This document shows, piece by piece, positions 1,088-42,180 of a stretch of 64,000 nucleotides of DNA. Origin of the DNA: an uncultured Planctomycetales bacterium (GTDB taxonomy: Bacteria > Omnitrophota > Gorgyraeia > Gygaellales > Profunditerraquicolaceae). Below the pieces are notes generated by a model. The model ran no database searches. It worked only from the letters and a program-made list of their open reading frames with translations, and was not told the origin of the DNA. The position numbers and the translations under genes are program-made. Within the stretch, counting starts at the first letter, position 1; each line of letters starts with the position of its first letter. The stretch spans positions 69,327 through 133,326 of the forward strand of contig CAZRVK010000001.1 in assembly GCA_964603585.1 (NCBI GenBank). Direction: 5' to 3'.

Positions 1088-1089
1088 AT

Positions 1090-1899: not shown

Positions 1900-1907
1900 C
1901 CACATGT

Positions 1908-2942
1908 TTAACTCCCGCTCAAACACGCATTGTAACAAGTAGGATCACCGCTGCATATACAATTACATAACTGCTGTTTGGCCGTATTAACCGGCGGATA
2001 TAAAGGATCTCGTATTGCTTTTAAGTTCTGGTATTGGTTCCATAAAGGAGGACATTGTGCCAAAGTAGGATCATACCCGCATCCCACCGATTGGCCGTTA
2101 GTATCCGGGATCGCCTCTGTAATAATAGGCAGACTATTACAACATCCCGCGCTTCTCATCTGATCAAACTTGGCGACAATATTCAACTGCGCGTTCTTCC
2201 AGGCAGTGTTCTTTGCGTTATAGTTATCATATTGGGCCTGGCATGGTGAAGGAGTAGTACTCCCAGAAAGTGATGCATCCGTACCGGCAATTTTACAGCA
2301 ACGATAATTTACCACGGCCATCTTCACTCCCCCGCCTAATCCCAAAGCTCCACAGGCATAACCTCCGCCAACCCCTGCGCCCAGATAAAATCCGGGGGTT
2401 TCCCACACACCGGTCAAATAAGAGTTATCGGGACACGCCGCAGTATATGAAAACACAAAGAAACTTGAAAAATCAGTGCATTGGCCTGGGCCCGGCCAGG
2501 AATCGATTATATTGCCGCCAACATTCAAACTATTCAGGTCACGGATCGCATTCACGTTAAGATTATACGTATTAAAGCTCATAGTCGCAGCAGTCGAACC
2601 CGGAGGAGGAATAACCCTTATTGATTTATTCTGGTCGAATAAAGAAAAATACACCGGGGTGCTGATAAAATTCGTATATGTACTACCCGGAGGATAAGAA
2701 CCGGTAGGAGTCGCAGTATTGCCTACTCGTAACGGATAATTGCTGCCGGTAATCTCTTTTTTGAACTCACCGGTTACAATCGTAGATTGGGATAAAAGTT
2801 TATCGGTTGTCAGTTGGTCGTATTTTAGTACCGGGGCGGGGAAATATGTGCTTACCTGGACTTTCTCATCAGCCGCAGAACAGATACTCGTAAAAGCCGC
2901 GATCAGAAGAAATAACCCTATGATCTTGCATGTTTTTGCCAT
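1908..2942 (-). CDS. secreted Cys/Gly-rich protein, paralog 3 of the TYYPSP-motif family
   Basis: Signal peptide MAKTCKIIGLFLLIAAFTSICSAA then VQVSTYFPAPVLKY; Cys-rich C-terminus CNCICSGDPTCYNACLSGS; GxGxGGG stretch. Confidence 0.55.
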   Translation of the reverse strand: MAKTCKIIGLFLLIAAFTSICSAADEKVQVSTYFPAPVLKYDQLTTDKLLSQSTIVTGEFKKEITGSNYPLRVGNTATPTGSYPPGSTYTNFISTPVYFSLFDQNKSIRVIPPPGSTAATMSFNTYNLNVNAIRDLNSLNVGGNIIDSWPGPGQCTDFSSFFVFSYTAACPDNSYLTGVWETPGFYLGAGVGGGYACGALGLGGGVKMAVVNYRCCKIAGTDASLSGSTTPSPCQAQYDNYNAKNTAWKNAQLNIVAKFDQMRSAGCCNSLPIITEAIPDTNGQSVGCGYDPTLAQCPPLWNQYQNLKAIRDPLYPPVNTAKQQLCNCICSGDPTCYNACLSGS

Positions 2943-7953: not shown

Positions 7954-9027
7954 TTATACCGCTTTTTCAGTATGTTGCAAATAATTTTTTGTTTTTATCT
8001 TCTTCACAACCTTTAAGAACGCCTCTACCACCTTCGGATCAAACTGCTGACCGCTTTTTTTCTTGATCTCTTTTATTGCCGAAGGTATATCCATCCTCTC
8101 CCGGTAAGGCCTTCCATAAACCATCGCTTCAAAGGCGTCAGCCACTGCCATGATCCTCGCGCCTTGCGGTATCTGCATTTTCTTAAGTCTGGAGGGATAA
8201 CCCGTACCGTCATATTTTTCATGATGGTGCATGATCATCGGAATGACCGGACGCAGTATCTGCAAAGGCCGCAATATCTGTGCCCCCTTGACCGGATGCT
8301 TCTTTATGATACTATACTCCTCCGGGGTCAACTTAGTGGTCTTAGTCAATATTTCCATCGGGATATCCACTTTTCCCGTGTCATGCAAAAGGCTGGCGTA
8401 TTTCAAGCTTTCAACCTGCTTTTGGTCCAGATGCATTTGAGTGCCAATTGCAACAACCAGCCGGCTAAAATACGGGGAATGCGTATATGCCTGCGGTACA
8501 CGTATATCCAAAAGCGTCACCAGTGATTTTATACTGCCAATTACTATTTTCTGCTGTTCTTCAAAAAGCTGAAAGTTCTTTATCCCGATGATCGCCTGTT
8601 CGGCTAAAGTGACCAAAACCTCATAATCGAACCTTTCAAACGGCCGGTCGCTTTTATTACGGCGCACGATGATCAACCCCATAATATCATCGGACACAAG
8701 CGGCATTGCCAAAAGATGCGGTTTTCTTACCGAAGACAGCGTCTTAATGATATTCTTTTCAAGCCGCCCTTCGATCTTGCATTTTTTGTCAAAACTGTAC
8801 CGTTTGGAACCTTTAGTTTCACATTTAAAAAGAGAGTATTTTTTTGAAGGATCGAGTAAAATGATCTGGCTTTGCCGAGCACTGAAGATCTGATAAAGCA
8901 GACGGGTCAGACGCAAGATCAATTCGTTGAGTTCAAATGTCGAATTGATCAGGCGGTATACGCTGTGCAATGAAGAGGTCAGCGTCTTATACTTTTTCGT
9001 AGGGGTCAAATAATTTTTTGTATTCAT
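7954..9027 (-). CDS. HD-GYP c-di-GMP phosphodiesterase with N-terminal GAF-like domain
   Basis: HD motif (LLHDTGK) and HHHEKYDGTGYP (HD-GYP signature). Confidence 0.8.
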   Translation of the reverse strand: MNTKNYLTPTKKYKTLTSSLHSVYRLINSTFELNELILRLTRLLYQIFSARQSQIILLDPSKKYSLFKCETKGSKRYSFDKKCKIEGRLEKNIIKTLSSVRKPHLLAMPLVSDDIMGLIIVRRNKSDRPFERFDYEVLVTLAEQAIIGIKNFQLFEEQQKIVIGSIKSLVTLLDIRVPQAYTHSPYFSRLVVAIGTQMHLDQKQVESLKYASLLHDTGKVDIPMEILTKTTKLTPEEYSIIKKHPVKGAQILRPLQILRPVIPMIMHHHEKYDGTGYPSRLKKMQIPQGARIMAVADAFEAMVYGRPYRERMDIPSAIKEIKKKSGQQFDPKVVEAFLKVVKKIKTKNYLQHTEKAV

Positions 9028-25598: not shown

Positions 25599-26771
25599 AT
25601 GGAAGAAATTACCCGGGTTAAATTAGAACTGGAACGCACCAAAAACGAGCTGGCGATACTCTATGAGGTCTCCAATGCCATGCGTACCACCTTAAAGCTG
25701 GATGAGATCCTCTACATTATCTTAACCGGAGTAACCGCCCATACCGGGCTTGGGTTTAACCGGGCGGTACTGTTTTTGGTTAATGAAACAGACGGCCTGA
25801 TCGAAGGCACCATGGGGATCGGCCCGGAAACTGGTGAGGACGCCAACCGGGTATGGAAACGCATCGAACAGGAACAAATGGACTTAGAAGACCTGATCAG
25901 CGCCTATAAATTCTCTAAAACCGCGGTTGATTCCAGTTTTAACCAGCAGATCCGCCGGCTAAAAATCCCGATCCACGAGCCAAGTGGCGGGATCCTGGCA
26001 ATAAGCGTATTAGACGGGATGCCAATACACTTAACCAGCGAAACCATACATAATTACTCTAATGACCCTATTGTGGCAATGCTAAAGGCCACGGAACTGG
26101 TTTTGGTCCCGCTTAAAGCAAAGGACAAGGTAAACGGCATAGTACTGACCGATAACTTCATTACCAAAAAACCGATCACTAAAGATGATATCCGGATGCT
26201 GATCATGTTGTGCAACCAGGCAGGTCTGGCAATAGAAAACTCCCAGCTTTACGAAAAAACCGAAATGCGCGCGCATTCGGATTATCTGACCGACCTATGG
26301 AACCACGGGTATTTTCAATACCTCCTGCAAACTGAATTTGAAAAAGCCAAAGCCACCCAATCACCCCTTAGCCTGATCATGCTGGATATCGATGATTTTA
26401 AGATCTATAATGACCGTCTTGGTCATCAGGCAGGAGACCAGATCTTAAAGGAGATCAGCAATCTGCTTAAGAACCAATCCCGGAAAATGGATTTTGTCTG
26501 CCGCTATGGCGGGGAAGAATTTACCATCATCATGCCAAAAACCAATAAGGATGAAGCATTTGCCATTGCAGAAAAATTAAGGCAGGACCTCTACAAGCAC
26601 AACTTCGCGCATGAAGAAATCCTGCCCAATAAGAAACTTACCGTAAGCTTAGGGCTTTCCACCTTTCCTTCCGACGGATCAACCCCTTCTGACCTGATCC
26701 TTTATTCCGATAAAATGCTGTATCAGGCCAAGCGTAAAGGCAAAAACACCACCTGTTACTGTAATCCTTAA
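25599..26771 (+). CDS. GGDEF diguanylate cyclase with N-terminal GAF-like sensor domain
   Basis: RYGGEEF active-site motif; only plus-strand gene in a long minus-strand run. Confidence 0.8.
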   Translation: MEEITRVKLELERTKNELAILYEVSNAMRTTLKLDEILYIILTGVTAHTGLGFNRAVLFLVNETDGLIEGTMGIGPETGEDANRVWKRIEQEQMDLEDLISAYKFSKTAVDSSFNQQIRRLKIPIHEPSGGILAISVLDGMPIHLTSETIHNYSNDPIVAMLKATELVLVPLKAKDKVNGIVLTDNFITKKPITKDDIRMLIMLCNQAGLAIENSQLYEKTEMRAHSDYLTDLWNHGYFQYLLQTEFEKAKATQSPLSLIMLDIDDFKIYNDRLGHQAGDQILKEISNLLKNQSRKMDFVCRYGGEEFTIIMPKTNKDEAFAIAEKLRQDLYKHNFAHEEILPNKKLTVSLGLSTFPSDGSTPSDLILYSDKMLYQAKRKGKNTTCYCNP

Positions 26772-30450: not shown

Positions 30451-30801
30451 CTAAAGGTGCTGCATAAGGTATTGCTCGATATTCTTGCGGTCATCCTTAT
30501 GGATCGACGTAAACTCTATTCCGGCATCATAAGCCTGGCTGGTCCCGATATTACCAACCGCAAATTCATCGATCCATGCCACCCGTCCCTGGGCAGTAAC
30601 GCCTTTTTCATCCCCAGGCAGGGAAAATTTAAGGCTTAAGGTATCACCGATATTGAGCTTTTCCAAAGCAACGATACAAATCCCGCCGCCGCTAAGATTC
30701 TTGCTTTTTCCAACTTTTAAAAAGTCCGGTGACGAATTCAAAAGTTTATACTCTACTTCTACACTAAAATTCAGCCTGGGGAACCGCCTGCGTTCATCCA
30801 T
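30451..30801 (-). CDS. PilZ-domain c-di-GMP-binding protein
   Basis: RRRFPRLN (RxxxR) and NLSGGGICIV (D/NxSxxG) PilZ motifs. Confidence 0.75.
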   Translation of the reverse strand: MDERRRFPRLNFSVEVEYKLLNSSPDFLKVGKSKNLSGGGICIVALEKLNIGDTLSLKFSLPGDEKGVTAQGRVAWIDEFAVGNIGTSQAYDAGIEFTSIHKDDRKNIEQYLMQHL

Positions 30802-30808
30802 GATATTT

Positions 30809-31144
30809 TTAGATCTCCTCTCGTTCTACCTCTGAAACCTCCGAAGGATCGAAGAAATACACCGTTGCGTTAGCCTTGCCTTTATCGGGAGTAACCACAA
30901 GGTAATTGTTGGCTTCAAAGATCGCGCAAACCTGTTCATGAGGGAGATTGGAAAGATTAAGATCCAGCTCATCCCCCACATTGATCTGGGAAAATACCGG
31001 CCTTTTGATTCGGCTGCTAAAGGCATGAACATTGATCTTTTTGATATGCGTGTCTTTTACCGGAGCACCTGTTGCCTGTTCGGCAAACCTCTTAAACCGC
31101 TCTCTCACCTCAGGTGGAATGGGGAATTGCTTGTTCTCATTCAT
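30809..31144 (-). CDS. hypothetical protein, possible degenerate PilZ-like domain
   Basis: 111 aa; PEVRERFKRF arginine motif; strong SD AAGGAGGTG 7 nt upstream of ATG; 7-nt gap to the PilZ gene. Confidence 0.45.
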   Translation of the reverse strand: MNENKQFPIPPEVRERFKRFAEQATGAPVKDTHIKKINVHAFSSRIKRPVFSQINVGDELDLNLSNLPHEQVCAIFEANNYLVVTPDKGKANATVYFFDPSEVSEVEREEI

Positions 31145-31160
31145 AATTACACCTCCTTAT

Positions 31161-31322
31161 CCAGAAAGGATAACACCGGCGCATTACCGATTAGCGCCGG
31201 GTGTTCCAGAAAGGATAACACCGGCGCATTACCGATTAGCGCCGGGTGTTCCAGAAAGGATAACACCGGCGCATTATACCCAGTCCAGGTACACTGGCGC
31301 AATGCCGATTAGCGCCAGGTGC
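31161..31322 (-). repeat. tandem array of a 45-nt hairpin module (two identical copies, one partial, one diverged) in the leader of the PilZ gene pair
   Basis: unit CCAGAAAGGATAACACCGGCGCATTACCGATTAGCGCCGGGTGTT at 31161-31205 and 31206-31250; each has CACCGGCGC/GCGCCGG(G)TG stem; diverged copy 31292-31321 has CACTGGCGC/GCGCCAGGTG (compensatory C>T / G>A). Confidence 0.8.
31273..31302 (-). promoter_or_regulatory. candidate promoter (TTGCGC-18-TATAAT) embedded in the hairpin-repeat array
   Basis: minus strand: TTGCGC (31297-31302), 18 nt, TATAAT (31273-31278); -35 lies in the loop/stem of the diverged hairpin copy. Confidence 0.4.
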
Positions 31323-31324
31323 CG

Positions 31325-31362
31325 AAAATAAAAAAAAGCAACCCTCATTTCCCGAGAGTTGC
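31325..31362 (-). terminator. rho-independent terminator downstream of the histidine kinase gene
   Basis: minus strand: GCAACTCTC-gggaaat-GAGGGTTGC hairpin then TTTTTTTTATTTT. Confidence 0.65.
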
Positions 31363-31501
31363 CTTTACGAAAATTCTACCGGTATTTTCATTTCACGCCT
31401 CCTCTGCTGCCACTCAAAGGACTCGTCTTTTGCTGTTACCTTATTATACTACTTTTTGATCTTTTGCAAGCTTTTTTTATAATTCTGGATCCAAAGGTTT
31501 A

Positions 31502-33664
31502 TTACTTGGCTAAGGGGAGCTCAATAGTAAAGGTAGTGCCTTGCTGGTATTGGGATTCAAAAGAGATCTTGCCTTTATGCGCTTCGGTAATGATCTTTTT
31601 GATCACATAAAGGCCCAGACCAGTGCCTTTACGATTAGTGGTTTTTGTGGTAAAAAACGGGGTAAAGATCTTGTTTAAATTGCTTTCCTTCATCCCCATA
31701 CCATTATCGATAATTGTAATCTCAAGATTTGCCCCTACGGGCTTGGCATGAAAGATGATCTTTCCGCGGTAACCTTCTTCTTTTAACATAATCCTGCGTT
31801 CAACTATGGAATCATAGGCGTTATCAATAAAATTAAAGAATACCTCCTGCAGTTGCACCAGGTTACCATTTATTTTCGGTGTATCTTGAGGGTAATCGCG
31901 CACAAGATCAATATCAGGAAGCTTGATCTTATATTGCACCATAGCGATCGTACCGTCAATCACCTGATCCAAGGCCAAGGGTTCAAAATGCTCTTCTCCG
32001 GCTTTTGTGTACTTAAGTATCCCTTTAACCACCTCTCCGCCCTGTATGACATTTACCTGTATCCGGTCAAGGGCATGCGCCACATCAGAGATCATCTTCT
32101 GGATCTCCGGCGTGCATTTAGAAACATCAATATCCTTGATCGTATCGATACTATCTCCGGCAATAAGCGACAAGGCATAAAAACGGTTATTGATCTGATG
32201 AGAAAGGCCATAAGCCATAGTCCCGACAGTCGCCATCTTTTCGGTCTCGGCAACTTGCTCGGTCATTACTTTCGCATCTTCATAGAACTGGGCATTCTCA
32301 ATTGCAAGCGCCGCCTGGCTGGCCAAAACCTGAAAGACATCCAGATCGTCCAAAGTATAAATCTGCCCGGAAAGTTTATCCCCTAAAATAACAAACCCCA
32401 AGAACTTATTTTCAAGGAATATCGGAATAACCACCGAAGCATCCAACAGGCGCATATTATCTTCTAAATACTTATAAGTCGGGTTTGTGCTATCCTCCAT
32501 CTGGTGTTTTACTTCTTCATAAAGTAACGGCTCGCGTTTCACCATAATCCAGGATACTAAGGGATTTGCCGCCGGCAACCTAAAAACCGCATTTGTGCCA
32601 TGATGGCGATACACCTGCATTACATATTCATCTTTTTCCGGGTCATACAGGTAAATTGCCGCATGAGAGATATGCACAGTTTTAGTCACAATACGCACGA
32701 TTAAATCCAAAAGCCTTTTTAGGTCACGGACTCTGGTCATACCGATGGAAGCCTGTTTGAGGGTTCTTTGATACTGCTTTTGCTCCTTCAGCAGACGGTC
32801 TTCGGCTTTACGCTGGACAAAGATATAAATAAACGGCCCGACAGTAGCTAAAACTGCCATTAGCCCTAAAGGAACACCCCACCAGTTAGCGCCGAAGAGC
32901 TCAATCAACCTATCCTTAAACCATGCAACAGCCGCAAAAGGAAGACCGAGGACTAAGGTGTAAACTAAAACAAAAACACCCGCGCGAGTAATAGCAACAT
33001 TTACGTCTAAAAGCCTATATCTTAAAATAGCATAAGTTCCTATTATTCCATAAAGAGCAACTCCAAAATTACCAATAGGATAAATATCAATTCCTATGGC
33101 TGGCAGTAAAGTTGAACCTCCTCCAATAAATCCTACGGCAAATCCACCTAAAAGATATAATCCTTGAATATGCTTAAAACCACTACTTTTTCTAATAAAT
33201 CTCACTAATTCATAATGCCCCAACAAAGAAACAAAAACCCAACTACAAGACATTAAAAGATATAATATGGTTGGACTATTATAAAAAAAGTTATAAACGA
33301 GATGCCAATGAGCAAACATTACACCTTCCGGTGTAAAAATAGTTAATAACCAAAAGGTTACTCCTTGCGCATAAATCAAAGCTAAAATCTTTTTCTTATC
33401 TATCCCGCAAAAAACATATATAGTATGATAAAACAAAACCGCCAAATACAATCCTCCAGTAGTAGCTACTTTCCAACTCAACCAAGCTTCACTTGTTGTT
33501 ATGGAACGACTAAGGAGGAAAGTTCCTATTCCCCAAATCAAAACAGATAGATTAAATAGCAACCAAATCTTATGTAATCTTGATTTACCAAATATTAATA
33601 AAATTACAATCAAGATAGAGCTCACAACTGAAATCAATATCCCGGAAATTGCGAACAAATTCAT
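31502..33664 (-). CDS. sensor histidine kinase with N-terminal 7TM-receptor domain and GAF domain
   Basis: ~280-aa polytopic N-terminus (7TM-HK type), GAF region, H-box (LSHQINNRF), HATPase_c (GTGLGLYVIKKII…GTTFTIELP); start overlaps stop of the upstream oxidoreductase gene; no response regulator adjacent. Confidence 0.75.
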   Translation of the reverse strand: MNLFAISGILISVVSSILIVILLIFGKSRLHKIWLLFNLSVLIWGIGTFLLSRSITTSEAWLSWKVATTGGLYLAVLFYHTIYVFCGIDKKKILALIYAQGVTFWLLTIFTPEGVMFAHWHLVYNFFYNSPTILYLLMSCSWVFVSLLGHYELVRFIRKSSGFKHIQGLYLLGGFAVGFIGGGSTLLPAIGIDIYPIGNFGVALYGIIGTYAILRYRLLDVNVAITRAGVFVLVYTLVLGLPFAAVAWFKDRLIELFGANWWGVPLGLMAVLATVGPFIYIFVQRKAEDRLLKEQKQYQRTLKQASIGMTRVRDLKRLLDLIVRIVTKTVHISHAAIYLYDPEKDEYVMQVYRHHGTNAVFRLPAANPLVSWIMVKREPLLYEEVKHQMEDSTNPTYKYLEDNMRLLDASVVIPIFLENKFLGFVILGDKLSGQIYTLDDLDVFQVLASQAALAIENAQFYEDAKVMTEQVAETEKMATVGTMAYGLSHQINNRFYALSLIAGDSIDTIKDIDVSKCTPEIQKMISDVAHALDRIQVNVIQGGEVVKGILKYTKAGEEHFEPLALDQVIDGTIAMVQYKIKLPDIDLVRDYPQDTPKINGNLVQLQEVFFNFIDNAYDSIVERRIMLKEEGYRGKIIFHAKPVGANLEITIIDNGMGMKESNLNKIFTPFFTTKTTNRKGTGLGLYVIKKIITEAHKGKISFESQYQQGTTFTIELPLAK

Positions 33665-35094
33665 ATTTTTTTACTCTCTTTATGCAAAATTAAATCCGCA
33701 GTATCATAACCGCAACTAGCGACAAATGGAATACCACTGCTCAAATTAGTCCAATGTCCAGTTAAATATAAATTCTCAATTTGAGTGTTTTGAGATATAC
33801 TTGGATTCATAAACTGTTCAACCGTACTAGCCCATCCATAAGCTGCGCCACATGAATTTGCAGTCCAATTTCTTAAAGTCACTGGGGAAGCCGAAATCTT
33901 AGTAGAAATACAATTCGACAAATTTGGGATAACCATCTCCGCTTGTTTTATTAATAATTTCATCAATTCATCTCTTTTATGTTGGCTCCAAAACGAATCG
34001 GAATTATATAAAGCATTCGTAGTTAAACAAATCGAAGTTTTATGCGTTTCATAATCGCTCTTAGAAGTTGGGCTAGAAATAACAAAATGGCTGTTTCTTG
34101 AATTAAGAAAATTTGAATAAATTTCCTCTAAATTCATCCCATTAATAACATAAAGATTGGCGGTTAATTCACTTTGATTAAGCGAACATTTATCTTTTAA
34201 TCCTAGATACACCATAAAGCCTGAAAAAGATGAAAGAAAGGAATCAATCTCATGAAAAACCGAAATAGGAATTACCTCCTTATCAATAAGATTAGAATAA
34301 GTCTGAACTAAATCACAAGCAGAAATTACATATTTAGAAACAACTGTTTTGTTTCCTTCAATACAAATCCCTTCAACCTTTTGACGATCATTTACAAGAA
34401 TCTTTTTCACTTGTTTAGATAAAACAATACTGCCGTTTAGGTCTTTAAAACAATCAACTAAAACATTCGAAAAAGTCTGCATCCCCCCGGAGGGATAATA
34501 TCCACCATCAAATATAAACTCCCTCCAAAGTAAACAACCGACAATACCTGATATTTTAAATGAATCCACTCCGGACAGAAGAAATGTAACGACTAACACT
34601 ATAGTTATAAGCCTATGATCACTAAAATATGAACGGACAATTTGTTCAAATGTTTTCGATCGTAAAACAAGTAAATCTTTGGTTTGACTAAGCTCGATAA
34701 ACTTAAAAAAACACTCAATTTGCTTATTCTGTTCAGGAAAACATTTCTGAAAATTATCAATATTCCGTTCGATCTCACTACCTAATGATATTCTGTATTC
34801 AGGAGTAATTACCATATCCGATGGGTTATGCTTAATAAATCTTATTTTATCGGATAATTTAAAATCATTTAATATTTTCGTTAACCGCCCAGTCTTTCTC
34901 AAACTTGAAATACCATGCGCACATGCATCAAACAAATAACCATTTCTCTTAAACGATGTACAATACCCCCCTGCCTGGGCATTTTTTTCTACAATTAACG
35001 TACGCAATCCTGCCTTCGCCAGATAACAGCCACAAACCAAACCGCTGATTCCAGCTCCGATTATAACAGCATCGTAGTCGTAATTTTCTTTCAT
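33661..35094 (-). CDS. FAD-dependent oxidoreductase, phytoene desaturase/amine oxidase (CrtI) family
   Basis: N-terminal DAVIIGAGISGLVCGCYLAKAGLRTLIVEKNAQAGGY dinucleotide-binding motif; 477 aa. Confidence 0.7.
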   Translation of the reverse strand: MKENYDYDAVIIGAGISGLVCGCYLAKAGLRTLIVEKNAQAGGYCTSFKRNGYLFDACAHGISSLRKTGRLTKILNDFKLSDKIRFIKHNPSDMVITPEYRISLGSEIERNIDNFQKCFPEQNKQIECFFKFIELSQTKDLLVLRSKTFEQIVRSYFSDHRLITIVLVVTFLLSGVDSFKISGIVGCLLWREFIFDGGYYPSGGMQTFSNVLVDCFKDLNGSIVLSKQVKKILVNDRQKVEGICIEGNKTVVSKYVISACDLVQTYSNLIDKEVIPISVFHEIDSFLSSFSGFMVYLGLKDKCSLNQSELTANLYVINGMNLEEIYSNFLNSRNSHFVISSPTSKSDYETHKTSICLTTNALYNSDSFWSQHKRDELMKLLIKQAEMVIPNLSNCISTKISASPVTLRNWTANSCGAAYGWASTVEQFMNPSISQNTQIENLYLTGHWTNLSSGIPFVASCGYDTADLILHKESKKI

Positions 35095-35096
35095 AG

Positions 35097-36398
35097 TTAG
35101 TTTGCCTTTTTAAAGATTGCAGCGGCATTAAATCCGGCAAAAGCGCTGCAGACTTTTGCTGCTGTGGTTAGATTGATCTCTTTCGTGCGGGTTATTATAT
35201 CAAGATTGAACTTAGAGTCAAGATTATTACAATTTAAAGTGGCAGGGATAATATTATTCTTTAACGCTAACAAGAGTATTGCAGTCTCAATCAAAGCACT
35301 GGCTCCTAAATTATGGCCGATATAAGGCTTGAATGCGCTGATCAAAGGCGTCTTCGGATGTTTGCCAAAAATCGCGGTGATTGCCAGTGATTCATAATAA
35401 TCGATCACCTGATACCCCACTCCATGAGGACAAATCAGATCAATATCTTCTTTAGTTACACCCGCCTGAACAAAGGCTTTTGTGATCGCTTTTTGATACG
35501 AATCACTCCCTAATTGCGGCACTGTGATCTTCCATCCCTCTAAATCAAACCCTCCGCCCAAATACTCGGCATAGATCTGGGCATTACGGTCTCTGGCATG
35601 TTCATAATCTTCCATGACAAGCCCGACTCCGCCATCGCCAAAGACAAGCCCGGTACTGTCCTTACAAAAAGGCCTGATTATTCCGTCTTTCGAATATATT
35701 CCCAGCCCCTTAAACCACACATATTTATATATATCGGGATAATCAGACGCGGCAACCACACAAACCTTTGCCTGGCGGTTCTTTAAGATCTGTGCTGCTG
35801 ACTCCAAAGCATATAAACCCGAGGCACAGGCATTATTAATAAAAAGCGAGTATTCGGATATATTGAATACCCTGGCAACATGAAAAAGATCGGCAAAGGT
35901 TTGAATATCATAACCGCTTTTTAGAAATGACCGGTAAAATTTATCGATAAAATCCTTTTTGGAGATATCGCTTCTTTTCTTGCCGATGAGCATATCATAA
36001 GCCAAATTGCTTACTTTATAGCCGAACGGCATCAATCCCAGGTTTTCATGCGCAAGGACAAGGCTAATCCCGTTATTTTCAACTTTATAATCTATCTTAC
36101 TATCATCCAAAGCCAGCTTTACAGCCGCAATGAGATAATTAAGGTCGATGATCTCCTCGCCTTCTTTCCAGGCTTTAATATCATCTAATCTGCCTTTATC
36201 TAACCCGAACTTCGAAAGGTCAAAACCTTCTACTTTATGGAAATAAAATTCATCCCAGAGTTCCTCATCAATAAAAACCTTTTCCCGGGACAAATTAACT
36301 TTTTGATCGAGTACCCCTTGCCAAAAATTTTCTTTGCCTATACCCACAGAGCTGATCGGGCCAATACCGGTTATCACAACCCTCTTTTCTTTATTCAT
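35097..36398 (-). CDS. beta-ketoacyl-ACP synthase, FabF/FabB family (Cys-His-His) with N-terminal insertion
   Basis: active-site NNACASG Cys, PHGVGY and IGHNLGASA His motifs; 433 aa. Confidence 0.75.
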   Translation of the reverse strand: MNKEKRVVITGIGPISSVGIGKENFWQGVLDQKVNLSREKVFIDEELWDEFYFHKVEGFDLSKFGLDKGRLDDIKAWKEGEEIIDLNYLIAAVKLALDDSKIDYKVENNGISLVLAHENLGLMPFGYKVSNLAYDMLIGKKRSDISKKDFIDKFYRSFLKSGYDIQTFADLFHVARVFNISEYSLFINNACASGLYALESAAQILKNRQAKVCVVAASDYPDIYKYVWFKGLGIYSKDGIIRPFCKDSTGLVFGDGGVGLVMEDYEHARDRNAQIYAEYLGGGFDLEGWKITVPQLGSDSYQKAITKAFVQAGVTKEDIDLICPHGVGYQVIDYYESLAITAIFGKHPKTPLISAFKPYIGHNLGASALIETAILLLALKNNIIPATLNCNNLDSKFNLDIITRTKEINLTTAAKVCSAFAGFNAAAIFKKAN

Positions 36399-36657
36399 TG
36401 GACCCTTTTTCTAAAGCCTGGCGCACAATCTCCACCGCATGCCTAATCGTAGATATCTTGGGGATTTGTTCATCTTTGATGCGCACCTTATACCGTTTTT
36501 CGATCGCTACCGTCATTTCGATCGCCTTGATCGAGTCTATCCCCAGATCTTGCCAGAAGTTGGCGTCAAGTTTCAACTCCTCAATATTCCTGCCGGTAAC
36601 ATCTGAAACCACCTGTGTTATCTCAACCTCTAAATTATCATTTTTATCCTTTGCCAT
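36391..36657 (-). CDS. acyl carrier protein (dedicated)
   Basis: ORF 36391-36783; likely start at internal MAKDKND (ATG 36655-36657) giving 88 aa; DLGIDSIKAIEM phosphopantetheine-attachment motif. Confidence 0.7.
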   Translation of the reverse strand: MAKDKNDNLEVEITQVVSDVTGRNIEELKLDANFWQDLGIDSIKAIEMTVAIEKRYKVRIKDEQIPKISTIRHAVEIVRQALEKGSNE

Positions 36658-36661
36658 AGAT

Positions 36662-37885
36662 CTACTCCTTTTGAAGGTTAAATTTGCCAAGCAGTAAACA
36701 CGCGTTGTTGCCTCCAAAGGCAAAACTATTGTTGAGCACAATTGCTGTGCTCTGTTTACGGGATTGGTTCGGGACACAATCAATATCGCACTCCGGATCG
36801 GGAGTCTCGTAATTTATTGTTGGAGGGATAATATCATTTTTGACACTAAGGCAGCAGGCAACCGCTTCGATCGCCGATGCCGCCCCCATGGTATGCCCCA
36901 GCATTGATTTTATAGAGCTTACCGGAACTTTGCGATGACTGAAAACCTTGTTGATCGCAGCAGACTCTGCCTTATCGTTGTTCCTGGTGCCGGTGCCGTG
37001 CGCGCTGATATAATCGACTTCATCCGGGGATACGCCAGAACGCAGGAGTGCATTCGACATACACTCGGCAATACCGTCAATATGCGGGCTGGTCATATGA
37101 AAAGCGTCGCAGCTCAAGCCATAACCGAGGATCTCCGCATAAATCGGTGCGTTTCTTTTTACGGCAGAATCCAGGGTTTCAATGATAAGGACCCCGGAAC
37201 CTTCCCCCTGAAGCATCCCTTTCCGGTTTTTGTCAAAAGGCTGGCATTTCTCCGGCGCCATCGCCCGCAGCTGGCCAAACCCGGTAAACGATAAATACGA
37301 AAAAGCATCCGCACCTCCAGCAATAATCAAATCCGCTTTATTCCTCTGCAGAAGATCATAACCATAACCGATCGCATAATTACCCGCAGCGCAGGCAGTA
37401 GTAAATATCCGATTAGGGCCTTTAGTCTTGAATTCAACCGAAACATTCGAGGAGATATTATGTACCGGATACTGGATTATTGACCAGTGGCTGATATTCT
37501 CTTTTCCATGCCTGACCCAGACCGCATCCATTTCCTCTATCTTTTGCGCCTCTCCACTGGTCGTGCCAAAGATAACCGCAGTCTTTTCGGCATTCATCTT
37601 CTTATGGCTTAATTTCGAGTCATGCAGGGCAAGACGGGTAGCCGCAATAGCAAGATGCGATGCCCTGGCCATAAGTTTTATCTTTCGCGGGCTTAGGTAT
37701 TCTTCGGGCTTAAAATCCTTTATTTCTCCGGCATTATGCACAAAGTGGTCTTTAGTATCGAAGAACTCGACTTTAGAGATCCCGGATTTTCCTTTGATCA
37801 GGTTATTCCAGAAAATATCCTTGCCTGATCCGATAGAACTGACCACCCCTAATCCGGTAATCACAACACGCTTCTTTTCCGTCAT
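36662..37885 (-). CDS. beta-ketoacyl-ACP synthase II-like (FabF family, Cys-His-His intact)
   Basis: ORF 36662-37951; likely start at internal MTEKKRVVITGLGVV; TTACAAGNYAIG (Cys), ISAHGTGT (His), SMLGHTMGAAS (His). Confidence 0.8.
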   Translation of the reverse strand: MTEKKRVVITGLGVVSSIGSGKDIFWNNLIKGKSGISKVEFFDTKDHFVHNAGEIKDFKPEEYLSPRKIKLMARASHLAIAATRLALHDSKLSHKKMNAEKTAVIFGTTSGEAQKIEEMDAVWVRHGKENISHWSIIQYPVHNISSNVSVEFKTKGPNRIFTTACAAGNYAIGYGYDLLQRNKADLIIAGGADAFSYLSFTGFGQLRAMAPEKCQPFDKNRKGMLQGEGSGVLIIETLDSAVKRNAPIYAEILGYGLSCDAFHMTSPHIDGIAECMSNALLRSGVSPDEVDYISAHGTGTRNNDKAESAAINKVFSHRKVPVSSIKSMLGHTMGAASAIEAVACCLSVKNDIIPPTINYETPDPECDIDCVPNQSRKQSTAIVLNNSFAFGGNNACLLLGKFNLQKE

Positions 37886-37889
37886 AAGC

Positions 37890-39155
37890 TTAAATCCTGG
37901 TTGCCTTGCCGATAATAAAAGAGATATTGCCTCCGGACGGGCTAAAGGCATTGATCATGATCCGCGATAACTTCTTCTTCTCGGGTTTATTAACCACATA
38001 ATTCAGGTCGCAATCCGGGTCTTTTTCTTTATAATTGGATATCCTGGGAACCAACTGGTTCTCCAAAGCGCCTAACGCCGCAACCGTAGAAAATCCCCCC
38101 GAAACGCTATAACCTTCTCCGACAATCGATTTAACTGCGGTCACGGGGATTTTTTTTGCGTATTTTCCAAAAACAGATTTGATCGCATGCGTTTCGATCA
38201 AATCCGCATCAGGCGTTGAATTGGCATTGGCAAAAATACAGTCAATATCTTCGGGCAAAAGGCCTGCATCCTGCAAAGCCATCTGCATCGCATGCCGCAT
38301 CCCTTCTCCTTTCGGGCTATAGTTATAAAACCGTGCCGGATCAAAACAAGAACCAATCCCTAATATTTCGGCGTAGATTTTTGCTTTTGTATTTAATGCC
38401 ATATTTTTATCCTGAACAACCAAGGCTGTCGCGCCTTCGGAGAAAATGATCCCATTCCTTCTTTTATCAAAAGGGCAGCTCATTATTGGTGTATCATTTT
38501 TAGATCCGGAAAGATAATTAAGCCGGTAAAATCCCAAGAATGTCTGTAAACTTAGATCCTCAACCGCGCCGCAAAGGACAGTATCCGCCCGGTCAAGCAG
38601 TAATGAATCCCGGGCATAATCAATAGCGTCTATTGCCGAACACATACCGGTAGAAAGCGTAGAATTGAACCCTTTAACCTTAAAACGGATGGCCACCCGG
38701 CTGGCAGGAGAATTACCTACTGTACTGGGGAATATCGAAGGATTTACATACGCCGGACCTTCGGTAAGGGATTCCCGGTCAAATTTAGAAATACTATGTA
38801 AACTGCCAAAAGTAGTCCCGACTGAAATCCCGGTGCGTTTTGTGTTAGATTCATCAATGTTTATCTTTGCGTCATCAATACCGAGTTTAGCCGCGCATAA
38901 AATCAATAATGTCGCCCGGTCTAAATCCGTTAAACCCGCAGGCCCTAAGATCGATTTCGGATCGAAACCGCTGATTTCTCCGGCAATATGCACCTTAAGA
39001 TCGGTTGTCTCAAATAAGGTAATCGGATTAAATCCTGTGACAGATCCAAACAAACCCTGCCAAAATTGATCTTTGCCGATTCCGATGGAAGATACTACCC
39101 CGATCCCCGTAACCACCATCCTGCGCGTTTTAAAAGATGTCTTTATCATAATCAA
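37890..39155 (-). CDS. ketosynthase-like protein retaining the active-site Cys but lacking both catalytic His (CLF-like/non-decarboxylating partner)
   Basis: STGMCSAID (Cys present); FabF AHGTSTP replaced by ANANSTP; FabF GHLLGAAG replaced by GEGYSVSG; 4-nt overlap with AAR gene. Confidence 0.7.
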   Translation of the reverse strand: MIMIKTSFKTRRMVVTGIGVVSSIGIGKDQFWQGLFGSVTGFNPITLFETTDLKVHIAGEISGFDPKSILGPAGLTDLDRATLLILCAAKLGIDDAKINIDESNTKRTGISVGTTFGSLHSISKFDRESLTEGPAYVNPSIFPSTVGNSPASRVAIRFKVKGFNSTLSTGMCSAIDAIDYARDSLLLDRADTVLCGAVEDLSLQTFLGFYRLNYLSGSKNDTPIMSCPFDKRRNGIIFSEGATALVVQDKNMALNTKAKIYAEILGIGSCFDPARFYNYSPKGEGMRHAMQMALQDAGLLPEDIDCIFANANSTPDADLIETHAIKSVFGKYAKKIPVTAVKSIVGEGYSVSGGFSTVAALGALENQLVPRISNYKEKDPDCDLNYVVNKPEKKKLSRIMINAFSPSGGNISFIIGKATRI

Positions 39156-40171
39156 AGTATCGGCGCTTCGGGGAGCCAGACTTCAAAACCGTAACGCGCC
39201 GCAATGTCAGCGATCTGGTCCATTTTATCCAGATTAATATTGTCACCTGCGGAATAACTGCAAATCTTTCCTTCCGCCGCTAAAAGAATAGTCTCTGCCA
39301 GGCCCGCTGGAATGATCCCTTTAGGCAATCCCAGATCCATGGGAAAAGGCAATAAAGATGGTGTCTTAATCAACCCGCATTTAACAAGCGTTATATCCGA
39401 GCGGCCTTGCAGGCGGGCGGAAACAGTTTTGTCAACCGTAGCATCAAAAACGATTGCCTGCGCTTTTAATTTTCCTAAATCAAGGCCAAGAGGATCAAAG
39501 GCATCGTCATCGGCAAAAATAACCATATCCGCATCCTGAATTGCCTTTTGCGGAACAGGTTCGATCTTTATATTTATGGGATTAAGTTGTAAAATGATTT
39601 CTTTGAGTTTTTCGAGTTTAACACTGTCGCTTGAAGTAATTGTAAGGCCGGAAAGATACCCGGACAATTTCCGGGAACATAATGAACCAACGGCGGTAGA
39701 AGCCCCGATAATAAGAACCTTCGACTCTTTTAAAGCCAGTCTTTTTGCCCGGGCAATGCGGTATACCGCTTCAAACGCCGACCAGGCAATATAAGTACTG
39801 CCGCTGGTTACCGGAAGGCGAAAACTGCGAAAGGCAGTGTAACCCTGGTCATATAAGATTGAAGTATATCCTCCCATTCCCAAAATCGCCGCACCGAGAT
39901 CATTGGCAAGGCGAGTAGCAGAAATGATCTTTTCCATTGCTAAAATCTTGTTCTCTTTAAGGCAGGCAGTAGTATCAGATAATGAGACAAAAAAGCCGGC
40001 AAGCTGATTATCGTTAGCGCAATAAAAAGGAGCCATTTTATAAGACCTGATACCGTAATTGTTCTTTGATGATATTCTTTGAAACCAGGAGGGAATTAAA
40101 CGGCTTAACCCTAAAGGGCATTTCATACCAGCCGCGTTTGTAGGATGTGTTAAGTATACGAATTTTCTCAT
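39152..40171 (-). CDS. acyl-ACP reductase (AAR)-like NAD(P)-dependent enzyme (COG5322-type)
   Basis: Colinear with cyanobacterial AAR as recalled from memory: GMGGYTSIL vs ALGGFTSII, VTSGSTYIAWSAFEAV vs FTTGNTHTAYVICRQV, KVLIIGASTAVGSLCSRKL Rossmann vs ATVAVVGATGDIGSAVCRWL, conserved Cys in TLVKCGLI, C-terminal AARYGFEVWLPE. Confidence 0.6.
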   Translation of the reverse strand: MRKFVYLTHPTNAAGMKCPLGLSRLIPSWFQRISSKNNYGIRSYKMAPFYCANDNQLAGFFVSLSDTTACLKENKILAMEKIISATRLANDLGAAILGMGGYTSILYDQGYTAFRSFRLPVTSGSTYIAWSAFEAVYRIARAKRLALKESKVLIIGASTAVGSLCSRKLSGYLSGLTITSSDSVKLEKLKEIILQLNPINIKIEPVPQKAIQDADMVIFADDDAFDPLGLDLGKLKAQAIVFDATVDKTVSARLQGRSDITLVKCGLIKTPSLLPFPMDLGLPKGIIPAGLAETILLAAEGKICSYSAGDNINLDKMDQIADIAARYGFEVWLPEAPIL

Positions 40172-40201
40172 TTATTGGGTTTACAGAAGCACAAGCTTAG
40201 T

Positions 40202-40432
40202 CTATTCGGTTTTCAGTATAGATCTGCTGTTTTCCTGGCCCTCTATATTGTATTCGTGTTTTTCCTTAATCCATTTTTCAATGTATTTTTTATGAAATCT
40301 CCAATCAGTCCCGATCTTAAAAGCCGGGATCTTGCCTTGACGGGCATATTTGTGCACAGTAAGAAGATGCAAATTAAGGTACTCTGCTACTTCTTTTGCT
40401 GTTAGTATGTCTTTACTTTTGTTTTCAGTCAT
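40202..40432 (-). CDS. HTH_17 (excisionase-family helix-turn-helix) DNA-binding protein, first gene of the KS/AAR operon
   Basis: LTAKEVAEYLNLHLLTVHKYARQGKIPAFKIGTDWRFHKKYIEKWI; paralog of the HTH upstream of smc. Confidence 0.7.
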   Translation of the reverse strand: MTENKSKDILTAKEVAEYLNLHLLTVHKYARQGKIPAFKIGTDWRFHKKYIEKWIKEKHEYNIEGQENSRSILKTE

Positions 40433-40479
40433 CGCCTAAACAAGTTTAAGCATGTTTTAGCTAATCACAAGTAATTTAA

Positions 40480-40508
40480 AATATACATTGCAAAGTATGT
40501 ATTGTCAA
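40480..40508 (-). promoter_or_regulatory. sigma70-type promoter TTGACA-17-TATATT for the HTH/AAR/KS operon
   Basis: minus strand: TTGACA (40503-40508) atacatactttgcaatg TATATT (40480-40485), ~48 nt upstream of the HTH ATG. Confidence 0.6.
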
Positions 40509-40513
40509 GGGTA

Positions 40514-40550
40514 TTTTAAAAAAGAAGGGGGACGGTCTCGACCGCCCCCC
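40514..40550 (-). terminator. rho-independent terminator after the lipoyl-domain gene (mdh-lpdA operon)
   Basis: minus strand: GGGGGCGGTCGAGACCGTCCCCC hairpin followed by TTCTTTTTTAAAAT. Confidence 0.65.
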
Positions 40551-40628
40551 TACAATTATGATCTTCTATTCCAGGCTATTCCTGGGATACGATTATGATC
40601 TCGGCATAACAAGCTACCGGAAAGATTC

Positions 40629-40862
40629 TTATTCGAGTACTCCCAGCGTCTGGCCTACCATCACCGTATCCCCTTCACTGAAGAAAACTTTAGTCAGCGT
40701 ACCAGAACATGGCGCAGGAAGATTAAAGGTGGATTTATCCGTGGCTAATTCGACTAAATCGTCTTTTTCATTAACCTTATCTCCGGCCTTGAAATACCAG
40801 TAAGAAACCGTAGCTTTCTCTATACGCTCTCCTAATTCAGGCAATATAACATTAGCCATCAT
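40629..40862 (-). CDS. stand-alone lipoyl-attachment domain protein (E2-type lipoyl domain)
   Basis: 77 aa; PELGE…ATVSYWYFKAGDKV…LVELATDKSTFNLPAP…G lipoyl-lysine motif (TDKS), not biotin AMKM. Confidence 0.65.
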   Translation of the reverse strand: MMANVILPELGERIEKATVSYWYFKAGDKVNEKDDLVELATDKSTFNLPAPCSGTLTKVFFSEGDTVMVGQTLGVLE

Positions 40863-40887
40863 AAACCTCCTTTTTTAGGGATTTCCC

Positions 40888-42180
40888 CTATTTTAACGCA
40901 TCGCGGATAGATTCTGATAAGGTCGGATGAGCAAATATCGTATCCTTAACTTGAGAAACTTTCAGCCCACAGGTAACGGCTAAAGTCAAAACTGCGATTA
41001 GTTCCGTAGCACGCGGCCCGATTATCGAAGCACCCAGTATCGTATCGGTCCCATTATCAGAAACGATTTTTATAAAACCTTCGGTTTCCCCGGAAATACG
41101 CGCCATCCCGGAACCAAGAAAATCGAATTTATTGACCTTTACCGCTATACCCGCAGATTGAGCTGCTTCTTCTTTTATCCCAATACTTGCGATTTCCGGG
41201 TCAGCAAAAATACAACTGGGGACATTAGTGTTATCCGCCTTCTTTAATCCGCCAGGATTCGCTATATTCTCTGCCGCGATCTGCCCCTGATATGCGGCAT
41301 AATGCGCCAGCATTATTTTAGCAGTGCAATCTCCTGCGGCATAAATATTCGGAATAGACGTGCGCAGATATTCATCCACTGCGATCCTGCCTCCGGTAAT
41401 CTTTATTCCGGATTCCTCAAGGCCTAAACCTTCGGTCATCGGTATACGCCCTGCACAAACCAGTGTCCGTTCAAACATGTCCACCGCACATGCCGAAGCA
41501 TCGGCATTAACAATAACCTTTATCCCTTTTTTCCGGAAAACCCCCTCAAGTTTACGGGATATGTCCGGATCCTCTCCCGGCAAAAGCCGGCTGAATTTCT
41601 CGGCAATCGTAACCTGACTGCCAAGATTAGAAAAAAGGCAGGCGAATTCACAGCCGATCACTCCCCCGCCAATAATTAAAAGAGAATCCGGGATCTGTTT
41701 TAAATCAAGGATATCATCACTGGATAGAATCTTCTTGCCATCGAACTTAAAACCCGGCAGTTGAAATACCTTTGAGCCGGTGGCAATAAGTATAGAATCA
41801 GCGGTAAGCACTTCTGTATTTACCCGGATCTCATTTGCTGATATAAGGCGTGCCGCAGCCGGAATAAGATCGATACCTTTAAGGGAAAAATTCAGGCCCT
41901 GTAAAAGCTGGCTGACAATCTTATCCTTTCGCGAGCACACTTCATTGAAATCTATTTTTATAGAATCACTACGCACACCAAAATCATTGGCTTTTTTCGC
42001 TAAGGAGAATGTTTTTGCGGATTGGATAAACGCTTTGGTAGGAATACAACCACGGTTAAGGCAGGTGCCTCCGGTTTTTTCCTGTTCGATCAATGCCACC
42101 TTTAATCCTAACTCCCGCGCGCGGTGCGCGGCATTGATCCCTGCCCAACCTGCGCCAATTATCGCCAGATCATAACGCAT
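40888..42180 (-). CDS. lpdA: dihydrolipoyl dehydrogenase
   Basis: YDLAIIGAGWAGINAA FAD motif, GGTCLNRGCIPTK redox disulfide, C-terminal HAHPTLSE. Confidence 0.85.
   Translation of the reverse strand: MRYDLAIIGAGWAGINAAHRARELGLKVALIEQEKTGGTCLNRGCIPTKAFIQSAKTFSLAKKANDFGVRSDSIKIDFNEVCSRKDKIVSQLLQGLNFSLKGIDLIPAAARLISANEIRVNTEVLTADSILIATGSKVFQLPGFKFDGKKILSSDDILDLKQIPDSLLIIGGGVIGCEFACLFSNLGSQVTIAEKFSRLLPGEDPDISRKLEGVFRKKGIKVIVNADASACAVDMFERTLVCAGRIPMTEGLGLEESGIKITGGRIAVDEYLRTSIPNIYAAGDCTAKIMLAHYAAYQGQIAAENIANPGGLKKADNTNVPSCIFADPEIASIGIKEEAAQSAGIAVKVNKFDFLGSGMARISGETEGFIKIVSDNGTDTILGASIIGPRATELIAVLTLAVTCGLKVSQVKDTIFAHPTLSESIRDALK

Follow-up and report, generated by a model that had tools for sequence, protein, structure and literature searches.

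A candidate lipid operon of Omnitrophota with homologues of the anammox FabF2/FabFmut ketosynthase pair and a linked membrane sensor kinase

What kind of lipid chemistry is encoded by an operon that combines three ketosynthase (KS) genes with an acyl carrier protein (ACP), a homologue of acyl-ACP reductase (AAR) and a flavoprotein, and that begins with a small DNA-binding protein and ends with a membrane sensor kinase? Such an operon occupies positions 31502 to 40508, on the minus strand, of a 64,000-nucleotide stretch of contig CAZRVK010000001.1 (assembly GCA_964603585.1) from an uncultured bacterium of the Omnitrophota; this whole stretch is referred to as the window, and all features of the operon given below lie on its minus strand. 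A first-pass annotation, made from the sequence letters, had proposed that a long or polyunsaturated acyl-ACP is built by the ketosynthases, released as an aldehyde by the AAR-like protein, and further oxidised or desaturated by the flavoprotein. We arrive at a different reading, to which we give about an even chance, namely, that the operon is a reduced Omnitrophota version of Cluster I, a module resembling fatty acid synthesis of type II (FAS-II) in anaerobic ammonium-oxidising (anammox) bacteria, and that it sits at a conserved lipid locus and shares its transcript with the gene of a membrane sensor kinase.

The evidence for this reading begins with the first two ketosynthases. KS_A (37890..39155, 421 aa) is a dead FabF homologue resembling a chain-length factor, in which Met stands at the position of the catalytic Cys, Asn replaces the first catalytic His and Glu the second; the replacement of both His had been seen in the first pass, and the catalytic Cys proves to be lost too. 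A neighbouring Cys at +1 of the catalytic position is not conserved in the family, and the dead triad is present in 120 of the 120 closest KS_A homologues. KS_B (36662..37885, 407 aa from the Met at 37885) is a FabF homologue of the active type, with Cys-His-His; its open reading frame (ORF) extends to 37951 (429 aa), and the N-termini of its homologues match the Met at 37885. The gene of KS_A lies immediately upstream of that of KS_B, the same dead-before-active order found in anammox bacteria. Among solved structures, KS_B matched best chain B of 9s5h, amxFabF2 (495.7 bits, 55% identity), followed by Iga11 (344.5 bits) and a cyanobacterial FabF (330.5 bits), and KS_A matched best chain C of the same entry, amxFabFmut (350.9 bits, 45% identity), the next hit being a FabF at 231.9 bits. 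For scale, identities to Escherichia coli FabF were 37% for KS_B and 29% for KS_A, the E. coli sequence serving as a ruler only.

In entry 9s5h, amxFabF2 and amxFabFmut of Brocadia fulgida form a complex, and these two proteins are active only together, decarboxylating malonyl-ACP; the heterodimer reacts fastest with a C8 probe, and residues Phe135 and Val139 of amxFabFmut shape its chain-length preference (Granatino et al., bioRxiv 10.64898/2026.05.19.726425). The equivalent tunnel residues are Phe and Val in KS_A and in 120 of 120 homologues. Judged from sequence comparison, then, KS_B and KS_A are specific homologues of an experimentally shown heterodimer, and it is this specific homology that supports the earlier suggestion that a KS and a dead KS act here as an elongation pair of the KS/chain-length-factor (KS/CLF) type.

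Downstream of the pair, the operon encodes an ACP, a third ketosynthase and a flavoprotein. First, the dedicated ACP (36391..36657, 88 aa; PF00550, 51 bits), which has the DS motif, finds its best solved relative in amxACP (7qv0_D, 52.2 bits), ordinary ACPs scoring 41-46 bits, which is a weak preference. Second, KS_C (35097..36398, 433 aa) is a divergent third ketosynthase with its Cys-His-His intact, as assigned by Pfam, NCBIfam and motif reading; its homologues, 58-74% identical, form more than 120 clusters, every named one from Omnitrophota. Its predicted model has a KS II fold like that of FabF and Iga11 (template modelling score, TM, ~0.8), and comparison of this model with the PDB returned the generic FabF/Iga11 fold and no telling neighbour. 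Third, the FAD flavoprotein (33661..35094, 477 aa; PF01593, 73.5 bits) belongs to the amine-oxidase/CrtI superfamily and resembles Kuste3607, to which it is 32% identical (162 bits), compared with 28% (143 bits) for Kuste3336 and 23% (75 bits) for Pantoea CrtI; this is a modest relationship, and the Kuste reference sequences, which come from supplementary material of Javidpour et al. 2016, are cut off at about 400 aa. The CrtI family model TIGR02734 gave 118.8 bits, below the subfamily cut-off of 238.1, and neither Kuste3607 nor Kuste3336 replaces crtI in E. coli. The link first drawn from this CrtI-like enzyme to the anammox ladderane clusters thus holds, with Kuste3607 at 32% against true CrtI at 23% identity.

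The flavoprotein gene also stands out in composition, with a GC content of 0.333 (0.264 at third codon positions) next to 0.40-0.48 in its neighbours, and this aberrant value suggests a recent replacement. A promoter-like site, TTGACT-16-TATAAT with a TG element, lies at 35194-35221, inside the KS_C gene and 100 nt upstream of the flavoprotein start, hinting that flavoprotein and kinase are perhaps transcribed separately.

The layout of the whole set agrees with the description given in the first pass, in that all eight genes, a promoter and a terminator were found, all on the minus strand, and the gene families named at that stage were borne out by Pfam and NCBIfam. The operon opens with a sigma-70-like promoter, TTGACA-17-TATATT (40480..40508; 11/12 match, joint-best in the region), directly downstream of the strong terminator (40551..40526) of the preceding lipoyl-domain gene, and ends with an intrinsic-terminator-like hairpin and T-run (31334..31366; 14-pair stem), 135 nt past the kinase stop. 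Since the totals of promoter-like and terminator-like hits across the region are not above shuffled expectation, weight rests on the placement of these elements and not on their number. The genes are closely packed, with a 30-nt gap between the HTH_17 and AAR-like genes, a 4-nt overlap between AAR-like gene and KS_A, 4-nt gaps from KS_A to KS_B and from KS_B to the ACP, an 8-nt overlap of ACP and KS_C, a 2-nt gap before the flavoprotein, and a 4-nt overlap of flavoprotein and kinase. FabG, FabZ, FabI, a thioesterase and an aldehyde-deformylating oxygenase (ADO) are missing from the eight genes as read by Pfam and NCBIfam, and no intergenic room is left for a FabZ, in agreement with what had been noted for the operon; neither was an ADO recognised among those ORF translations of the window that were read.

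Aldehyde release, as first proposed, turns on the 339-aa AAR-like protein (39152..40171). This protein is homologous both to AAR and to PigE in its thioester-reductase domain, and its AlphaFold model (30 homologues; pLDDT 83.9) returned AAR chains as all of its top seven Foldseek matches, with E ~1e-19 and TM 0.76-0.80 (0.77-0.80 to 6jzq/6jzy), so that the three-domain AAR fold is predicted to be kept. Compared with cyanobacterial AAR (PDB 6jzq/6jzu) and the PigE domain, it is colinear over ~330 residues and shares with AAR the conserved 'AE..LL' helix after the nucleophile position. However, identity to AAR is ~20%, and neither an ADO nor an aminotransferase accompanies it, unlike the AAR and PigE systems. 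An assignment to AAR by profile models fails, with 65.8 bits against the equivalog cut-off of 449.7 for TIGR04058 and 93.5 against 850 for the PigE N-terminal model, and no Pfam family matched at E<0.01. Of the two features that had been read in this protein, the active-site Cys is not there and the Rossmann motif is broken: phmmer and MAFFT agree in placing Cys294 of AAR, the nucleophile that forms the acyl-enzyme, opposite Gly290 (IIPAGLAETILL versus QMFACFAEAMLL), and the NAD(P) motif GATGDIG reads GASTAVG, GxxGxxG having become GxxTxxG with the loss of the middle Gly. The residue noticed earlier was probably Cys304, which aligns with a Thr of AAR and is not conserved.

The distribution of these two losses is telling of a clade and not of a single protein. 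At the nucleophile position, Cys is found in 37 of 37 distant homologues and in 12 of 12 paralogues fused to an SRPBCC domain. In the clade that adjoins HTH_17 genes, the same column has Ser (43), Cys (10), Ala (5), Pro (3), Gly (2), Tyr (2), Asp (1) or Glu (1), and the full glycine motif is missing in 53/67 members. When hits from protein searches and ORFs from loci are pooled, which brings some redundancy, Cys and full motif are both gone in 50/67 clade members and both kept in 7/67, and 45 of 49 paralogues and distant homologues keep both. The Cys-bearing paralogue, moreover, still matches Pfam Shikimate_DH, which the AAR-like protein does not. Because nucleophile and cofactor motif decayed jointly in one clade and were strictly retained in its sisters, the AAR-like protein is probably, on the residues it carries, a non-catalytic descendant of acyl-ACP reductase, a pseudoenzyme, and aldehyde release is therefore unlikely.

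The proposal of a long or polyunsaturated acyl-ACP released as an aldehyde can still point to the AAR fold, to co-transcription of the AAR-like gene with ACP and KS genes, to the minority of the clade that keeps the Cys, and to further reductase and oxidase genes of the NAD_binding_4 short-chain dehydrogenase/reductase (SDR) and glucose-methanol-choline oxidoreductase (GMC) types in some relatives. Besides the joint loss described above and the lack of a Pfam NAD-binding match, it has to accommodate that the AAR-like gene is missing from about three quarters of related KS loci (present in 5 of 21 KS_C loci), and that the operon has no ADO. A polyene, the product first envisaged, would need a ketoreductase (KR) and a dehydratase (DH), which 31 of 33 related loci encode and the operon does not. 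Altogether we consider this proposal very unlikely.

Three further points concern the AAR-like protein itself. Public annotation starts its gene at Met46 (294 aa), for which reason an exact search with the 339-aa ORF matched no database entry; this start is probably too short given that F4, P10 and P27 are near-invariant in homologues, and the 339-aa ORF of the window is thus supported. Tambjamine TabE was rejected as a model for a novel acyl-ACP reductase, being of the aldehyde-dehydrogenase type and unrelated, and the context of a 474-aa homologue of proteobacterial type (L009), which has no lipid genes, was set aside. Finally, with nucleophile and cofactor motif lost across the AAR-fold clade, some of its members are nonetheless annotated as 'fatty aldehyde-generating acyl-ACP reductase'.

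To place the operon among its relatives, loci were seeded from the AAR-like protein (26 species loci plus contig look-ups) and from KS_C (80 metagenome loci), and were annotated by phmmer against the window proteins and their neighbours, unidentified ORFs being checked in Pfam. KS_C loci number 84 in total, 27 with enough downstream and 21 with enough upstream sequence to be counted. The core order KS_A-KS_B-ACP-KS_C-(flavoprotein)-7TM kinase recurs among the 84 with variations. Downstream, the kinase with seven transmembrane segments (7TM) is next to KS_C in 26 of 27 loci, one or two flavoprotein genes lying between them in 18. Upstream, the 21 loci encode KS_B in 20, KS_A in 19, ACP in 19, FabZ in 17-19, FabG in 15-17, HTH_17 in 10 and the AAR-like protein in 5. 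A dehydratase of the FabA/FabZ type is found in 31 of the 33 loci that have both KS_A and KS_B, the exceptions being the window and L050, and FabG in most; the window operon is thus a rare reduced form, which must borrow both enzymes from elsewhere. Proteins identical to those of the operon are present on one NCBI contig and in two Logan assemblies, and all close homologues that bear an organism name come from metagenome-assembled genomes of Candidatus Omnitrophota. A survey paper on Omnitrophota has nothing on lipid synthesis.

The surroundings are conserved as well. In 19 loci the start of the operon, HTH_17 and AAR-like gene, follows the series Icd-Mdh-Lpd-(LplA/B-type transferase)-lipoyl-domain protein, and where downstream sequence sufficed the locus often closes with the 7TM kinase. 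What lies between these ends varies: the KS module; an ACP with a NAD_binding_4 SDR, a GMC oxidoreductase, a nitroreductase and a flavoprotein; a PlsC acyltransferase with an SRPBCC-fused, Cys-bearing AAR paralogue (with or without GMC); or a B12 radical-SAM enzyme. The lipid locus behaves as a variable hot spot between conserved ends, in which the AAR-like gene is constant beside HTH_17 and dispensable for the KS module; the module is also found away from the lipoyl-adjacent locus (L037). In other Omnitrophota, the homologous lipid loci have often taken up toxin-antitoxin genes, and mobile genes as well (AbiEii/AbiEi, HEPN/nucleotidyltransferase, Fic, Y1 transposase; L003, L007, L008, L012, L013, L016 and L037). 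Across loci of the same architecture, score ratios were 0.57-0.74 for KS_A, KS_B and KS_C versus 0.58-0.78 for Icd, Mdh and Lpd, and the AAR-like protein (median ratio 0.23) and the flavoprotein (0.27) are fast-evolving.

Conservation at this level bears on whether the three ketosynthases and the ACP might be the main fatty acid elongation machinery of small-genome bacteria, built on a heterodimeric architecture. Such a role would fit at least 84 loci assigned to Omnitrophota wherever they are named, the core-metabolism genes that adjoin the locus, the lack of any other KS or fab gene among the ORFs of the 64-kb window, and a type of heterodimer able to self-prime; KS_B also passes the cut-off of the FabF subfamily NF005589 (427.6 versus 387 bits). 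However, KS_B remains under the equivalog cut-off of the housekeeping FabF model TIGR03150 (440 versus 493.75 bits), as do KS_A (318) and KS_C (186), and many Omnitrophota carry KS-free cassettes at the locus (L006, L007, L008, L012). A second fab locus must exist to make up for the missing FabG and FabZ, a dedicated regulator and sensor are present, and some genomes have two KS/dead-KS sets in tandem, so that we see a housekeeping function as improbable. In these tandem cases (L037 4431-9884, and L109) a second dead-KS/FabG/ACP/FabZ/KS set lies upstream of the KS_C module, an arrangement from which KS/CLF pairs may also serve general fatty acid synthesis in the phylum.

The same neighbourhood invites another explanation, in which a C8-limited fatty acid synthesis supplies octanoyl-ACP for protein lipoylation, serving the adjacent genes for lipoyl carrier, octanoyl/lipoyl transferase and dihydrolipoyl dehydrogenase, much as mitochondrial fatty acid synthesis supplies octanoyl groups for this purpose. 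The direct succession in 19 loci and the preference of the anammox homologue for C8 probes would suit it. Against it, the two gene sets are split by a strong terminator and a separate promoter, the adjacency is independent of the cassette, KS-free ones included, many KS modules lie elsewhere (L037, L042, L071), and an enoyl reductase (ER) is lacking, as is the transferase gene in the window. We rate it as highly unlikely. At 40629-42180 the window holds a stand-alone lipoyl/biotinyl-domain protein of 77 aa right after dihydrolipoyl dehydrogenase; in relatives, the LplA/B-type transferase sits between these two genes.

The operon begins with a gene for a small DNA-binding protein of the HTH_17 type, excisionase/MerR-like (40202..40432, 76 aa; PF12728, 59 bits; TIGR01764, 50.9 bits), and ends with one for a HisKA_7TM-GAF-HATPase sensor histidine kinase (31502..33664, 720 aa; PF16927, GAF and PF02518), whose H-box reads 'GLSHQINN'. 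In 23 related loci the AAR-like gene comes after that of HTH_17, whose score ratio of 0.68 shows it to be conserved like the core enzymes. The reading of this excisionase-family protein as a mobile-element marker was set aside, as it is syntenic and well conserved in those 23 loci; no integrase-like protein was recognised among those translations of neighbouring ORFs that were read. No response regulator was detected between positions 28000 and 46000 of the window; a dedicated regulator and a co-transcribed 7TM kinase with no regulator partner nearby are as first described. The gene after the kinase encodes, in relatives, a stand-alone receiver or a receiver-HD-GYP protein (the latter in L050, L067, L068 and L077) and not a DNA-binding regulator, and the neighbours of a 7TM-GAF-HD fusion in L010 are an AAR homologue with the Cys, an AMP-ligase and a B12 radical-SAM enzyme. 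In the window, a PilZ gene (30451-30801) lies 700 nt downstream of the operon kinase, with no adjacent receiver, and an HD-GYP-like protein and a GAF-GGDEF cyclase are encoded further away (7954-9027, 25599-26771). Together, the HD-GYP outputs of the relatives and the HD-GYP-like, GGDEF and PilZ genes of the window suggest a connection with cyclic di-GMP (c-di-GMP). In L017 (11506-12276), the variable cassette encodes a fusion of a PilZ domain with a thioesterase of the 4HBT type, and this protein could be a c-di-GMP-controlled acyl thioesterase.

It is tempting to speculate, from this arrangement, that KS_C, the KS/CLF module and the flavoprotein make a medium-chain signal for which the 7TM-GAF kinase is the receptor that feeds into c-di-GMP. 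The same synthase-receptor logic is known from RpfF/RpfC/RpfG, the diffusible signal factor (DSF) system, and from CqsA/CqsS. The kinase follows KS_C in all but one of the 27 loci, minimal HTH_17-KS_C-kinase loci exist (L095, L096), the outputs in relatives are of the receiver-HD-GYP or stand-alone receiver kind, and the fusion in L010 and the PilZ gene just downstream in the window would agree with such a circuit. It would also agree with an enzyme cassette that differs among species between conserved ends, and a KR and DH cycle without ER, combined with a chain-length factor, would yield medium-chain 2-enoyl products. Nevertheless, conservation of the KS proteins at the level of core enzymes is unusual for diversifying signal systems, the window has no thioesterase or release enzyme and neither receiver nor HD-GYP partner beside its kinase, and for lipid binding by this kinase family there is no experimental precedent. 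We take signal synthesis and reception to be the main alternative, albeit an unlikely one. Still a little less probable, in our estimate, is the more specific version in which the KS_C module and the 7TM-GAF kinase constitute a DSF-like synthase-receptor pair in many Omnitrophota, with c-di-GMP output, and in which the AAR pseudoenzyme senses acyl-ACP together with HTH_17.

Returning to the interpretation of the operon as a reduced, Omnitrophota version of anammox Cluster I, homology, residue states, fold and gene linkage allow the following sequence of events to be proposed. Active KS_B and dead KS_A would form a KS/CLF heterodimer, as their characterised homologues do, which would self-prime by decarboxylating malonyl-ACP on the operon's own ACP. 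Chain length would be limited by the tunnel residues of KS_A, the anammox complex favouring about C8. Keto-reduction and dehydration would be carried out by FabG and FabZ encoded elsewhere, since the operon, unlike 31 of 33 relatives, has lost its own copies. KS_C may perform a further or handover condensation, and the Kuste3607-like flavoprotein would then modify the chain, most plausibly by an oxygen-independent desaturation. The product would be a specialised acyl chain for a membrane lipid, and not an aldehyde. The AAR-like protein may work with the HTH_17 regulator as a partner that binds acyl groups or ACP; FapR, with its effector domain of thioesterase fold, is a precedent for an acyl-binding partner of enzyme fold in regulation. 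Lastly, the 7TM-GAF kinase, genetically coupled to KS_C across the phylum, is predicted to sense the lipid product or the state of the membrane, and its relatives would signal through the stand-alone receiver or receiver-HD-GYP proteins encoded after them.

Several points weigh against this interpretation. Heterodimer formation, chain length and the flavoprotein reaction are all transferred by homology. KR, DH, ER, a malonyl transferase and any release or transfer enzyme are absent from the operon. Not every locus of the family has the flavoprotein (18/27 do), which, with its aberrant GC, may be a recent add-on here. As for the pseudoenzyme, 7-10 members of the AAR-like clade keep the Cys and/or the glycine motif, so that the clade is not uniformly dead, and the sequence leaves room for direct hydride transfer without a covalent intermediate.

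Beyond the operon, the remaining genes of the window encode ribosomal-protein operons, rpoA, accB/accC and central metabolism, and an Rfam scan of the window found one tRNA only and nothing in or beside the operon. Between the kinase stop and the terminator stem, a tiny minus-strand ORF, MKIPVEFS (31365-31391), is preceded by a GGAGG ribosome-binding site and may be due to chance. On the same strand, positions 31160-31330 hold 2.6 copies, 100% identical, of a 45-nt unit plus one degenerate copy, each unit containing the hairpin CCGGCGC-N11-GCGCCGG, without an Rfam match; this array has the operon terminator on one side and, on the other, an ORF of 111 aa (31144..30809, no Pfam match), after which comes the PilZ gene (30801..30451). 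At 449-2942 (minus), three adjacent secreted proteins of 212, 282 and 344 aa share an N-terminal motif of the type 'T/S-YYPSP' after the signal peptide.

These results matter in several ways. For the KS pair, characterised relatives have been available only since 2026. Genes of the Cluster I type had been stated to occur in ladderane producers only; the distribution of the module in Omnitrophota contradicts this, for the KS pair, ACP, flavoprotein and usually FabZ and FabG are widespread in a different, uncultivated phylum and so are not ladderane-specific. Ladderane-specific chemistry is thereby narrowed to other genes, such as radical-SAM enzymes, and many natural variants become available for comparison. 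The near-obligate linkage of a ketosynthase and a 7TM sensor kinase, in turn, suggests that lipid synthesis and signalling are connected in host-associated nanobacteria, a link so far unexplored.

Among known systems, the closest is anammox Cluster I itself (KustE3603-3608), whose gene types are ACP, FabZ, FabF2, FabFmut, a phytoene-dehydrogenase homologue and a B12 radical-SAM enzyme. The window shares four of these six (KS, dead KS, ACP and phytoene-dehydrogenase-like flavoprotein), lacks FabZ and the B12 radical-SAM gene, and has in addition KS_C, HTH_17, the AAR-fold pseudoenzyme and a co-transcribed 7TM-GAF kinase, in an Omnitrophota host instead of an anammox planctomycete. Related Omnitrophota loci come nearer to Cluster I, with FabZ and sometimes a Kuste3608/2803-like B12 radical-SAM enzyme; homologues of the latter, at 32-39% identity, are confined to cassettes of other Omnitrophota (L010, L012, L014, L033), and an amxFabZ-type identity of the FabZ of relatives was rejected, as it has no specific affinity (115.6 bits versus 120 for ordinary FabZ). 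Synthesis of ladderane (cyclobutane) lipids, as proposed for Cluster I, would draw on the four shared gene types, but as the window has neither FabZ nor a B12 radical-SAM gene, as ladderanes are reported solely from anammox bacteria, and as the role of Cluster I itself is putative, we find it extremely unlikely.

FAS clusters of the 'ladderane type' that include a dead FabF have been on record since 2009, also from non-anammox bacteria, and oxygen-independent desaturation was proposed for the flavoproteins of the anammox and Desulfotalea clusters (Rattray et al.). More recently, antiSMASH 'ladderane' clusters were found, and found to be expressed, in non-anammox phyla, Omnitrophota among them (Geller-McGrath et al. 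2023, PMC9902471); the Omnitrophota ones, listed there without gene-level analysis, probably represent the same kind of locus as that in the window. The statement in the first-pass annotation that this gene combination is not a described pathway therefore stands in part only: the operon is a relative of anammox Cluster I, and 'ladderane' clusters had already been reported in Omnitrophota.

A second comparison is with aryl-polyene (APE) and highly reducing type II polyketide synthase systems (ApeO-ApeC plus ApeR; Iga11-Iga12), which likewise combine a KS/CLF pair, an extra intact KS and a discrete ACP; the relatives of the window also resemble APE systems in having KR and ApeI/ApeP-like dehydratases and no enoyl reductase. 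However, the KS proteins of the window are FabF-derived, scoring far below the cut-offs of PRK07103, PRK09185 and PRK06147, and the KR/DH, aryl starter enzymes, thioesterase, acyltransferases and export genes of APE clusters are absent.

A third comparison is offered by des-desK-desR, rpfF-rpfC-rpfG and cqsA-cqsS, in which the gene of a lipid-modifying or signal-making enzyme stands beside that of a multi-pass membrane histidine kinase. The window is likened to them by analogy alone, through the pairing of the genes, with receiver-HD-GYP outputs in its relatives; its kinase differs in its 7TM HisKA_7TM and GAF input, and no receiver is found in the window. Set against all of these systems, what appears new is that the module is widespread in Omnitrophota, that KS_C and a 7TM-GAF kinase are firmly coupled to it, that the window has it in a reduced form, and that a clade of AAR-derived pseudoenzymes can be recognised.

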